A program made the translations under genes and the position numbers. A stretch of DNA of 64,000 bases. Source: Escherichia phage teqskov. The stretch lies in the sequence record NC_054934.1; one strand, given 5' to 3'. The number at the start of each line of letters is the position of its first letter. Within the stretch, counting starts at the first letter, position 1. The notes beneath the pieces were generated by a model, which saw only the letters and a list, made by a program, of their open reading frames with translations, searched no databases and was not told where the DNA came from. Below are positions 9,472 through 13,447 of this stretch, piece after piece.

Positions 9472-10983
9472 TTATAAATTAACTGTTTTCATTACGTAAT
9501 TAAATTTTTCATCTGCGTAGCGCTGAATACGATCAATGCCATGTTTTAAAAGATAGTTCAAATGAACGTATTTCTTTTTCGTATTAGCAGATTTTGGTTT
9601 AACACCGCAATCATCGATGAGGTCCCAGACCGTTGCGATTGTTTTAGAACCATGCTTACGTAATACGCGACCTATTGTTTGCAATACAATAATTTTAGAT
9701 TTAACACCGTGCGCTAAAACAACGTGATGCAGATTTTTAACTGAAATACCAGTAGAAAATACACCATAACTAGCTACTATAATTATTCCTTTACCATTTT
9801 CAGCTAAGGTTTTCATTATATTGCGGGTTTCGGTATCAACTTCCCCTGATACGTAATAAACTTTATCGTATTCATTTTTAATTAAATCGAAAATAGCTTT
9901 ACCATGTGATACATGTTTAAACATGACAAAAGCGTTTTCATCTTTTTGCGCAAGCTTAATAGCTAATTTAGCGATCCATTTATTTCTTTTACTAAGCCCA
10001 GTAATAATTTTTATTTCTTCTTGATAAGTTTTTCCCTTTAATTTAGTAGTGAACTCATCTGGATAGCGAAGAAAAATACTATTAATTTTTAGCTCAGTTA
10101 CTTGTCCATCTTCCATTAATTTAGAAGTCGTTACTGGCTTAAATATTTCACCAAACATTCCAACATACTGCATGATATTAGCTTTGCCATCACGTAATGA
10201 ACCTGATAGACCAAATTTAAACATACAGTTATTTAATCCTGATATGATAGATGAAATACTTTTTCCTGTAGCAAGATGGCATTCATCATTCATCATCATT
10301 CCAAATTGTGAGAACCATTCTTTTGGTTGTTTTACTACAGTTTGCCATGTACCAACAACGACTGGTGCATCATTTTTATATTTATCATCTTTTGATGCTC
10401 CGCCGCCAATTTTCTTTATCATTGCATGGCTGAATAAACGATAGTCGACGAAGTCATCAGCCATCTGAGTTGTTAAGGCAGTTGTTGGAACAATGATAAG
10501 AATTTTACCTTCATAATTTTCCAAATAATATCGCGCAAGCAAAGCTTGAATTAAAGATTTACCTGCAGATGTTGGAAGATTAAGAATTCTACGACGATTA
10601 ACTAATCCTTCGAACACTGCATCTTTTTGATACCAGTGCGGTTCAATTCTTTTATTTCCTGAATAGATTTCTAATTTAGAAAGCCATTCATCAAAATCTT
10701 TTCTTGATAATTCTTCTTTTTCGTTAATTTGCGGGTCAATCCAGGCTTTATAGCCAAAGTTATCACAGAACTTTTTAATTTGCCCGACTAAGCCGAATGG
10801 AAGAAGACGATTATAATCTAAAAGACGGATTCGTCCATCCCAGTGGCCATATTTGTATTTCGGATTAAAACGATACCCATCAGCTTCAAAGCTAAAGAAA
10901 TCACGGAGTTCATGAAATGTACTTTCTTCACAATCAATTCTCACGTGACTAAAATCATAAAAATGTACTTTAATGTCAGTCAT
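9472..10983 (-). CDS. uvsW: UvsW DNA/RNA helicase (SF2)
   Basis: 503 aa; helicase motifs (GKS Walker A, DECH); synteny inh-uvsW. Confidence 0.85.
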   Translation of the reverse strand: MTDIKVHFYDFSHVRIDCEESTFHELRDFFSFEADGYRFNPKYKYGHWDGRIRLLDYNRLLPFGLVGQIKKFCDNFGYKAWIDPQINEKEELSRKDFDEWLSKLEIYSGNKRIEPHWYQKDAVFEGLVNRRRILNLPTSAGKSLIQALLARYYLENYEGKILIIVPTTALTTQMADDFVDYRLFSHAMIKKIGGGASKDDKYKNDAPVVVGTWQTVVKQPKEWFSQFGMMMNDECHLATGKSISSIISGLNNCMFKFGLSGSLRDGKANIMQYVGMFGEIFKPVTTSKLMEDGQVTELKINSIFLRYPDEFTTKLKGKTYQEEIKIITGLSKRNKWIAKLAIKLAQKDENAFVMFKHVSHGKAIFDLIKNEYDKVYYVSGEVDTETRNIMKTLAENGKGIIIVASYGVFSTGISVKNLHHVVLAHGVKSKIIVLQTIGRVLRKHGSKTIATVWDLIDDCGVKPKSANTKKKYVHLNYLLKHGIDRIQRYADEKFNYVMKTVNL

Positions 10984-11033
10984 GTCTAAATACCATGTAA
11001 TAAATATATCTATATTTATACTGAGGAAATATT

Positions 11034-11714
11034 ATGATAGATAAAGATTATATTGCAGAGCTGAAGGCTCTTGATGATAATAAAGAAGCTAAAGCTAAAT
11101 TAGCTGAATACGCTGAACAGTTTGGTATAAAGGTCAAAAAGAATAAATCTTTTGATAATATCGTTGTTGATATTGAAGAAGCCCTCCAGAAGCTCGCTAG
11201 TGAACCTATGCCAGAGACTGATGGGTTATCTATTAAAGACTTAATTGATGCTGCTGATGCCGCAGAGGGATTAAAATATGACGATGGAGAAGTCAATCCA
11301 GAAGCAGCACTTCTGATTGATTCTCCGGTTAAATCTGACATTAAAATTGAAGTAGTAGAAACGGATAAAATTCCTGAAAATACCGATGTTTTGATTGAAG
11401 ATACTCCCTTTGTTGAAGAAAAATTTGAACAGGCTGTAGCTGAGATTATTGAATCTGAAAAGCCGTCTGTATTTACTCTTCCAGAAAACTTTAGTCCGAA
11501 TCTTCAACTGATTGGAAAAAATCCAGGATTCTGTACTGTTCCTTGGTGGATTTATCAATGGATTGCTGAAACTCCTGATTGGAAATCTCACCCAACTAGT
11601 TTTGAACATGCGTCAGCACACCAAACTTTATTTAGTTTAATTTATTACATTAACCGTGACGGATCAGTTTTAATTCGTGAAACACGCAATTCTTCTTTCG
11701 TAACATTAAAATAA
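11034..11714 (+). CDS. inh: inhibitor of prohead protease Inh
   Basis: 226 aa as T4 Inh; synteny next to hoc. Confidence 0.7.
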   Translation: MIDKDYIAELKALDDNKEAKAKLAEYAEQFGIKVKKNKSFDNIVVDIEEALQKLASEPMPETDGLSIKDLIDAADAAEGLKYDDGEVNPEAALLIDSPVKSDIKIEVVETDKIPENTDVLIEDTPFVEEKFEQAVAEIIESEKPSVFTLPENFSPNLQLIGKNPGFCTVPWWIYQWIAETPDWKSHPTSFEHASAHQTLFSLIYYINRDGSVLIRETRNSSFVTLK

Positions 11715-11723
11715 GGATAACTT

Positions 11724-13142
11724 ATGGCTTTTACAGTTGATATAACTCCTAAAACACCTACTGGAGTTATAGATCAGACTCAGCAGTTTACTGCTACACC
11801 CAGTGGTCAAACTGGAGATGGACCTATTACATATGCTTGGACTGTAGATGATGTTCCACAAGATGGAGCTGAAGCAACTTTTAATTATGTATTAAAAGGA
11901 CCTGCCGGTCAAAAGACTATTAAAGTAGTTGCAACAAACCAAGTCCCAGATACTGATGCTGAAACAGCAGAAGCTACTACAACTATCACAGTTCAAAATA
12001 AGACACAAACGACCACCTTAGCTGTAACTCCTAATAGCCCTGACGCTGGAGTAATCGGAACAGCTATTGAATTTACTGCCGCTTTAGCTTCGCAGCCATC
12101 GGGCGCAAACGCTACTTATCAATGGTATGTAGATGATTCTCCTGTGGGCGAAGCAACTAACGCTACGTTCAATTACACTCCTGCCGAAAGCGGGGTAAAA
12201 AGAATTAAGTGTGTGGCTCAAGTAACTGCGACAGATTATGATGCACTAAGCGTTACTTCTAATGAAGTATCACTGACTGTTAATAAAAAGGAGCAGACAA
12301 CTACTTTGGCAGTAACTCCTGATAGTCCTCCAGCAGGAGTAATCGGAACCCCAGTTCAATTTACTGCTGCCTTAGCTTCTCAACCAGTTGGAGCGTCTGC
12401 TACTTATCAGTGGTATGTAGATGATTCACAAGTTGGTGGAGAAACTAACTCTACATTTAGCTATACTCCAACTACAAGTGGAGTAAAAAGAATTAAATGC
12501 GTAGCCCAAGTAACCGCGGCAGATTATGATGCAAAGGAAGTTACTTCTAATGAAGTATCATTAACGGTTAATAAGAAGACAATGAATCCACAGGTTACAT
12601 TGACTCCTCCTTCTATTAACGTTCAGCAAGATGCTTCGGCTACATTTACCGCTAATGTCACTGATGCTCCAGAAGAAGCGCAAATTGAGTATTCATGGAA
12701 GAAAGATTCTTCTCCTGTAGAAGGGTCAACTAATGTATATACCGTTGATACCTCATCTATTGGAAGTCAAACTATTGAAGTTACTGCAACTGTTACTGCT
12801 ACTGATTATGATAGCAAAACTATTACAGCAGAAGGTCAAGTTCAGGTAACTGATAAAGTTGCTCCAGAACCAGAAGGTGAATTACCTTATGTTCATCCTC
12901 TTCCACATCGTAGCTCAGCTTACATCTGGTGTGGTTGGTGGGTTATGGATGAAATCCAAAAAATGACTGAAGAAGGTAAAGATTGGAAAACTGAAGATCC
13001 AGATAGTAAATACTACCTGCATCGTTACACTCTTCAGAAGATGATGAAAGACTATCCAGAAGTTGATGTCCAAGAATCGCGTAATGGATACATCATTCAC
13101 AAAACTGCTTTAGAAACTGGTATCATCTATACCTATCCATAA
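11724..13142 (+). CDS. hoc: Hoc outer capsid decoration protein with an extra Ig-like domain
   Basis: 472 aa; N-terminal Ig-like repeats and C-terminal capsid-binding region (HPLPHRSSAYIWCGWW) recognised; one internal domain is tandemly duplicated. Confidence 0.85.
   Translation: MAFTVDITPKTPTGVIDQTQQFTATPSGQTGDGPITYAWTVDDVPQDGAEATFNYVLKGPAGQKTIKVVATNQVPDTDAETAEATTTITVQNKTQTTTLAVTPNSPDAGVIGTAIEFTAALASQPSGANATYQWYVDDSPVGEATNATFNYTPAESGVKRIKCVAQVTATDYDALSVTSNEVSLTVNKKEQTTTLAVTPDSPPAGVIGTPVQFTAALASQPVGASATYQWYVDDSQVGGETNSTFSYTPTTSGVKRIKCVAQVTAADYDAKEVTSNEVSLTVNKKTMNPQVTLTPPSINVQQDASATFTANVTDAPEEAQIEYSWKKDSSPVEGSTNVYTVDTSSIGSQTIEVTATVTATDYDSKTITAEGQVQVTDKVAPEPEGELPYVHPLPHRSSAYIWCGWWVMDEIQKMTEEGKDWKTEDPDSKYYLHRYTLQKMMKDYPEVDVQESRNGYIIHKTALETGIIYTYP
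12003..12575 (+). repeat. tandem duplication (two units of about 285 bp) inside hoc encoding two consecutive Ig-like domains
   Basis: units TQTTTLAVTPNSPDAGVIG...SLTVNKK (12003-12290) and EQTTTLAVTPDSPPAGVIG...SLTVNKK (12291-12575); diverged at nucleotide level, protein near-identical. Confidence 0.8.
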
Positions 13143-13168: not shown

Positions 13169-13231
13169 CATTTTGAAAGCACACAAAACACAATCAGAAA
13201 ATGATGTATATAATTGCACCAACTCGATAAC

Positions 13232-13447
13232 ATGAGATTGATTATGAGAACTGAGGTTGTGGTGTTTACTCTTCATGAGTCTGGAAAGTCATTCATTGAA
13301 ATTGCTCGTGAATTAAACTTACAGGTGAAAGAAGTGGCTGTATTATGGGCTCGAGCTATGACTGCTAAGAATAAATTTGAAACTCGAGAAAAAGTTGTCT
13401 ATAGAAAAAGACATATCAATAAAAAGGTGAAAAATGGAACAGTATGA
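13232..13447 (+). CDS. hypothetical small protein, possible helix-turn-helix
   Basis: ORF-track start is TTG; first ATG at 13232; segment SFIEIARELNLQVKEV is HTH-like. Confidence 0.45.
   Translation: MRLIMRTEVVVFTLHESGKSFIEIARELNLQVKEVAVLWARAMTAKNKFETREKVVYRKRHINKKVKNGTV

Follow-up and report, generated by a model that had tools for sequence, protein, structure and literature searches.

The window analysed here, a stretch of 64,000 nucleotides from Escherichia phage teqskov (NC_054934.1), carries an open reading frame that is very probably the Tequatrovirus gene hoc, for the highly immunogenic outer capsid protein, in an allele with two diverged tandem copies of domain 2 and the domain order D1-D2a-D2b-D3-CTD. 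This high confidence covers our best explanation as a whole, including the putative binding to the capsid and the presumed longer fibre; nothing speaks against the anatomy of the protein as laid out in Table 1. Comparison of the open reading frames with the T4 and JK38 annotations gave the gene order inh-hoc-24.3-24.2-rnlB, which is that of T4, with homologues of 24.3, 24.2 and rnlB as the downstream neighbours of hoc. At the place of gp24.3 the window has a 77-aa open reading frame with a TTG start (13214-13447, + strand), while gp24.3 is a shorter, ATG-started frame in T4 (56 aa) and in JK38 and the calls on contigs L025 and L026 (67 aa). The additional length is probably due merely to an in-frame upstream TTG.

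Table 1. Position of hoc, its upstream neighbour and its parts in the window.
Feature	Position	Strand	Remarks
inh	11034-11714		upstream neighbour of hoc
hoc CDS	11724..13142	+	472 aa plus stop codon, 1419 nt; from the ORF list
Ig-like domain 1 (D1)	11724..12005	+	aa 1-94; aligns to T4 Hoc 1-94; beta strands in the AlphaFold2 model, pLDDT 85-95
Domain-2 unit 1, A type	12006..12293	+	aa 95-190; motif SPVGEATNA
21-nt stretch GTTACTTCTAATGAAGTATCA in unit 1	12252..12272	+	identical to the copy in unit 2
Domain-2 unit 2, B type	12294..12581	+	aa 191-286; motif SQVGGETNS; 92.7% nt identical to T4 domain 2
21-nt stretch GTTACTTCTAATGAAGTATCA in unit 2	12540..12560	+	identical to the copy in unit 1
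Ig-like domain 3 (D3)	12582..12863	+	aa 287-380; equivalent to T4 domain 3
C-terminal capsid-binding domain (CTD)	12864..13139	+	aa 381-472; nearly identical to T4 285-376

The repeat is a duplication of domain 2

Tandem Repeats Finder reported a single array (12024-12578; period 288, 1.9 copies, 77% matches, no indels, score 695). When the two domain-2 units are set in register they agree at 219 of 288 nucleotides (76%) and at 78 of 96 residues (81%), and each unit is one structural domain, in frame, with its boundaries in the linkers. The 69 nucleotide differences fall on the three codon positions as 15, 11 and 43, and the differing codons comprise 33 synonymous and 18 non-synonymous ones. 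By the method of Nei and Gojobori this corresponds to a dS of 1.14 and a dN of 0.137, with dN/dS at 0.12. The best 288-nt window at an offset of 288 has the said 219 matches, against a maximum of 127 over all in-frame offsets in 300 codon-shuffled genes. The remaining Ig domains of the protein share just 27-37 identical residues with each other or with the domain-2 units, which argues that the repeat is a specific duplication of domain 2 rather than an expression of general similarity among Ig domains.

A tandem duplication of an Ig-like domain in a 472-aa Hoc, with divergence at synonymous sites, was what the original prediction had put forward from the letters of the DNA, and both points are borne out by these measurements. 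The similarity of the units was also seen correctly, but at 81% identity they are better called similar than near-identical in protein; the unit length is 96 aa and not 95, and the interval of 12003-12575 given for the repeat was off by a few bases. A much smaller tandem of a 12-nt/6-nt period, GTTACTGCAACT, lies within domain 3 (12780-12804, + strand; 2.1 copies, low score) and encodes VTATVTAT, probably a reflection of a beta strand rich in Thr, Val and Ala. At the corresponding place the record of phage mobillu has an annotated repeat_region.

PKD, Ig_2 and Ig_3 signatures of Pfam were found in both domain-2 units and in domain 3. The structure was predicted with AlphaFold2 from 56 homologues, and the model has four consecutive, confident, all-beta Ig-like domains (residues 1-375, most of them with a pLDDT above 90), as the original prediction of four tandem Ig domains had anticipated. 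Strands were placed at residues 99-187 in unit 1 and 194-283 in unit 2, with KKEQTT and KKTM as linkers. The CTD was modelled poorly (pLDDT 32-56), and its fold therefore rests on sequence identity to T4. The top Foldseek matches in the PDB were tandem multi-domain proteins of the Ig or cadherin type, many of them adhesion molecules with four or five domains; they include MpIBP region III (4p99), Sidekick Ig1-4, ICAM-5 D1-D4 and Dscam Ig1-4, and the Hoc fragment of RB49 (3shs) was matched as well.

Comparison with T4 and other Hoc proteins

A phmmer search of the PDB returned T4 Hoc (5vf3_Z, 376 aa) with E = 1e-219. Residues 1-113 of the window protein align to T4 1-113 and residues 191-472 to T4 95-376, so that teqskov Hoc exceeds its T4 counterpart by exactly one 96-aa domain-2 unit, and T4 does not have the same four Ig-like units. 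The original prediction had described T4 Hoc as a protein of 376 aa with three Ig-like domains and a capsid-binding domain, and this was right (5vf3_Z; AF158101.6, 376 aa and 1131 nt). Gene and locus are otherwise the same in the two phages (PDB 5vf3, 8t1x, 8t9r; GenBank AAD42581), with D1, D3 and the CTD collinear and the CTD about 97% identical in nucleotides. Between window residues 377-472 and T4 281-376 there is only a handful of substitutions, and Trp402, Trp405 and Trp406 of the CTD (W306, W309 and W310 in T4) are invariant in the 56 homologues. The single domain 2 of T4 is of the B type except for a short block of A type close to the 3' end; it resembles unit 2 of teqskov, whereas unit 1 is the one without a counterpart in T4. 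Unit 1 is 100% identical to unit 1 of vB_Eco_Solly.

Other Tequatrovirus phages have Hoc proteins of the same 472 aa and the same D1-A-B-D3-CTD arrangement, among them vB_Eco_Solly (OY720021), KarlGJung, KK4, Yersinia phage PST (NC_027404), phiD1 (HE956711) and HP3.1. Their genes are 90-98.5% identical to that of teqskov over 1419 nt, with point differences only, and belong to the same allele class. The same gene extends to 568-570 aa in Escherichia phages UGKSEcP1 and UGKSEcP2 and in metagenomic contigs such as L025, with three domain-2 units and five Ig domains. In L025 (1501-3207, 568 aa) the nucleotide identity of unit 1 to its window counterpart is 99.3%. Units 2 and 3 both resemble window unit 2, at about 87% identity, and in unit 3 sites of the A and B types are mixed as a mosaic.

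Farther afield, Klebsiella phage PMBT63 has a Hoc-like protein with one extra Ig domain (PMC13435897), that of Serratia phage Muldoon has 10 (PMC10385173), and PNJ-9 Hoc is without domain 3 (PMC11853027). These proteins and RB49 Hoc (PDB 3shs) share with teqskov a string of Ig beads of varying number on a conserved C-terminal anchor, but the domains gained or lost are different ones. Two distant T4-like Hoc proteins of 472 and 471 aa (L006, 1501-2916, and L007, 1501-2913) are less than 50% identical to that of the window. In both, it is domain 3 and not domain 2 that has been duplicated in tandem to give the fourth Ig domain, and these gains are thus independent of that in teqskov. Hoc is about 280 aa long, with two Ig domains, in two further contigs (L012, L019), and about 550 aa long in another (L015); these gains and losses are independent as well. 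Taken together, these cases underline that hoc is generally prone to gain or lose entire Ig beads in frame.

The four-Ig allele is common

A megablast search of 50,697 GenBank phage records with the teqskov gene matched 681 records. The 40 best of these are single-piece, full-length matches of 1419 nt with 93.5-98.5% identity, including Yersinia phage PST, Shigella phage SHFML-11 and several BASEL phages; the closest is vB_Eco_Solly with 98.5%. Prevalence was estimated from 60 evenly spaced records of the 681, scored by the span in the record and the number of pieces. Twenty of the 60 have a single-piece hoc of 1419 nt and about 30 a gene of 1131 nt (T4 AF158101.6 and PNJ-6 among them), one has a gene of 852 nt, and the rest are partial matches. 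The four-Ig Hoc is accordingly an ordinary allele, present in about one third of the hoc-matching phage records.

Two simpler ways of counting carriers were tried and rejected. The 596 of 681 records that cover at least 80% of the query do not represent a carrier count, because genes for 376 aa yield two joined pieces that reuse one subject unit; T4 hoc itself reaches 100% coverage in 2 pieces over a span of 1131 nt. Unit 1 alone did not discriminate carriers in megablast either, since T4 domain 2 was still matched at about 80% and the identities ran continuously from 100% to 78%.

Length classes of the protein were taken from the 120 best clusters (90% identity) of a collection of 5.8 billion proteins. 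Eighty-one of them are of 376 aa (plus one of 377 aa), and 30 are of 472 aa, 29 of these with two recognisable domain-2 units; one further cluster of 468 aa also has two units, and the 472- and 468-aa clusters jointly hold 444 member sequences. Eight clusters are of 568-570 aa, UGKSEcP1 and UGKSEcP2 included, and have three domain-2 units. The domain-2 copy number in Tequatrovirus is thus one, two or three, and teqskov has the common middle state. The rarity that the original prediction had implied for a four-Ig Hoc is not supported: the allele occurs in hundreds of public genomes, and variation in the number of Ig domains has been published (PMC10385173, PMC11150434, PMC13435897).

The annotation of hoc in GenBank is inconsistent, with names such as Hoc, "PKD domain protein", "capsid and scaffold protein", "capsid whiskers protein" and "capsid vertex protein", and one of the proteins (P0012) is labelled "endonuclease [Shigella sonnei]". 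In some records, for example MZ234025, the gene is split into 2-3 CDS over 1418 nt, a pattern suggestive of frameshift errors. Many copies sit in records of E. coli or Shigella assemblies, and phage contamination is presumably the reason.

History of the domain-2 units

The 120 proteins and the Hoc of the window were split into 167 domain-2 units. When two-unit and three-unit proteins are compared, each of the first two units has its nearest match in the unit of the same position, at 88% for unit 1 and 88% for unit 2, against averages of 78-81% for unit 1 with unit 2. Judged by their sequences, the domain-2 units are positional orthologues across carriers. In each of the 30 two-unit proteins (that of the window and those of 29 database clusters) the two units share 71-82 of 96 residues, and the diagnostic motifs, SPV.EAT.A for the A type and SQVGGETNS for the B type, are kept in the two-unit proteins. 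Neither a recent duplicate nor concerted evolution was found in any of these 30 carriers.

For D1, D3 and the CTD, the window and the further Tequatrovirus hoc genes that were compared with it differ by a dS of 0.08-0.36, and the value of 1.14 between the units is at least three times higher. The original prediction had called the duplication old and retained, and these values, together with the constancy of the two units in all 30 proteins, agree with it. That the repeat might instead stem from errors of assembly or sequencing, or from a very recent duplication in teqskov alone, has a probability of practically nil. Nothing beyond the general proneness of tandem repeats to misassembly speaks for it; differences at 69 of 288 nucleotides leave no room for the mis-stacking of reads, and the same gene is found at 90-98.5% identity in many independently sequenced phages. 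These differences, the dS between the units and the independent carriers rule it out.

Orthologous domain-2 units of the window and other phages gave a dN/dS of about 0.13-0.23. Both units are under purifying selection (dN/dS 0.12-0.23 when the comparison between the units is included), from which it can be argued that both fold and matter. Distant T4-like genera did not serve as an outgroup for the ancestral number of units: the identity of their domain 2 to each of the two units amounts to about 27-33% only, and the fourth domain that they have arose from domain 3 by duplication.

Copy number changes by unequal recombination

A single-unit relative of the window allele was found in a Logan assembly contig from run ERR1305878 (L026; protein P0082, 376 aa). 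Its hoc gene is 99.6% identical in nucleotides to that of the window in D1, 100% in D3 and 99.6% in the CTD. Its only domain-2 unit agrees with window unit 1 at 62 of 62 discriminating sites up to unit position 245, and then with unit 2 at the remaining 7, which places the crossover within GTTACTTCTAATGAAGTATCA, the 21 nt common to both window units. This gene derives from a window-type allele by a deletion of precisely 288 bp. The junction is the product expected from unequal homologous recombination that deletes one 288-bp repeat, and the gene is not a precursor, because the reverse direction cannot yield two units that differ by 24%. The deletion indicates that domain-2 copy number is actively gained or lost by unequal recombination. 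The tandem arrangement as such is old and conserved unit by unit among its carriers, and units are removed from it by unequal homologous recombination.

The contig also has, between uvsW and inh, an open reading frame for a 205-aa SegE-like homing endonuclease of the GIY-YIG type (144-761, - strand); the window has only a 50-nt spacer at this place (10983-11034). A homing endonuclease beside hoc could promote local recombination.

A different origin of the pair has to be weighed at this point. Two single-unit alleles, one of the A type and one of the B type, may have diverged first and then been joined by unequal recombination in a mixed infection, in which case dS would measure the age of the alleles and not that of the array. 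We regard this as possible, though a minority option. Among the 376-aa Hocs the single unit is in most cases of the A type, in others of the B type (as in T4) or a mosaic; some of these units reach 94-99% protein identity with one of the two window units, and recombination in hoc is evidently frequent. However, the two- and three-unit proteins examined all have A before B and keep the positional orthology, and at least one single-unit form demonstrably derives from a two-unit form, not the reverse. Moreover, orthologous copies of unit 1 have diverged up to a dS of 0.61, so that the joined state is old under either origin. An old tandem duplication of domain 2 remains our preferred explanation.

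Over the first 20 kb of the window, vB_Eco_Solly is 97.7% identical, and hundreds of other T-even relatives are 95-99% identical. JK38, teqdroes and PhiZZ23 are among the closest relatives (97.3-97.5% over the 20 kb), and are exactly 288 bp shorter across the hoc region; the hoc sequence of JK38 has 1131 nt. Copy number therefore does not track genome relatedness. KarlGJung has about 620 extra bp somewhere in the 20-kb region.

It is tempting to carry this further, and we do so tentatively, with less than even confidence. Domain-2 copy number could be a selected, frequently switching length polymorphism, in which an ancestral multi-unit array has been repeatedly trimmed, and perhaps re-extended, at short identical stretches, so that the reach of the fibre and the number of surfaces that bind glycans or cells would be adjusted to the niche; the three-Ig Hoc of T4 would then be a derived, shortened protein. 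That T4 Hoc is itself a reduced form may be the case.

A presumed longer fibre with a second domain-2 surface

The T4 capsid carries 155 copies of Hoc, each a fibre of four domains and 180 Å, with the CTD bound to the centre of the gp23* hexamer (PMC10385173). In Hoc homologues the capsid anchor is conserved and the string of Ig-like domains varies, with as many as 10 domains in Muldoon, and work cited in the same source attributes binding to E. coli surfaces to Hoc domains 2 and 3 (PMC10385173). By homology with T4, the CTD of teqskov Hoc would seat one monomer at the centre of each gp23* hexamer. The Ig-like domains would then project as a fibre of four beads, against three in T4, and a fibre of this kind would be about 45 Å longer than that of T4, if 180 Å are divided among four domains. 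The extra unit would present a second copy of the domain-2 surface. In domain 2 of PNJ-9 Hoc, the residues S-L-T are reported to be critical for binding to MUC2 (PMC11853027); they occur twice in teqskov Hoc, at 183-185 and 279-281, which is a hint at the level of a motif only. Residue D342 of teqskov Hoc corresponds to D246 of T4.

It is plausible that the extra domain alters the reach of the fibre or its adhesion. Hoc is non-essential in the laboratory (PMC10385173), and the extra domain could therefore have little phenotypic effect. It might even be a neutral spacer, tolerated since Hoc is dispensable and its Ig beads are independent of each other, with no adaptive change in adhesion or reach. 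Forms with one, two and three units do coexist among near-identical genomes, as would be expected of a weakly selected length polymorphism. We nevertheless consider a neutral spacer rather unlikely: both units are under the purifying selection described above, the array is intact in about one third of the records in spite of recombinational deletion, and a neutral 288-bp repeat should vanish from a size-limited headful genome.

Concluding remarks

The four-Ig hoc allele is already known, in the sense that it is contained in hundreds of annotated public genomes. In the searchable literature we found general accounts of variation in domain number, but none that names the duplication of domain 2 in Tequatrovirus Hoc specifically; subscription journals may hold an earlier description. 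What is added here is the copy-number series of one, two and three units, the positional orthology of the units and a demonstrated deletion junction. With the four-Ig Hoc we are dealing with a widespread variant of a familiar protein, not with a novel type of system.

T4 phage display and vaccine design use Hoc as their standard scaffold, and the "bacteriophage adherence to mucus" model is built on this protein. To our knowledge, nearly all structural and functional work on Hoc has been done with the 376-aa T4 protein, and we know of no experiment on, or structure of, a four-Ig Tequatrovirus Hoc. In nature, roughly one T4-like phage in three has a four-Ig Hoc, therapy candidates such as HP3.1 among them, and five-Ig forms occur in a few. 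What has been learned from T4 Hoc about the length of the fibre, its antigenicity, display geometry and mucin binding may thus not transfer directly to phages with four or five Ig domains.
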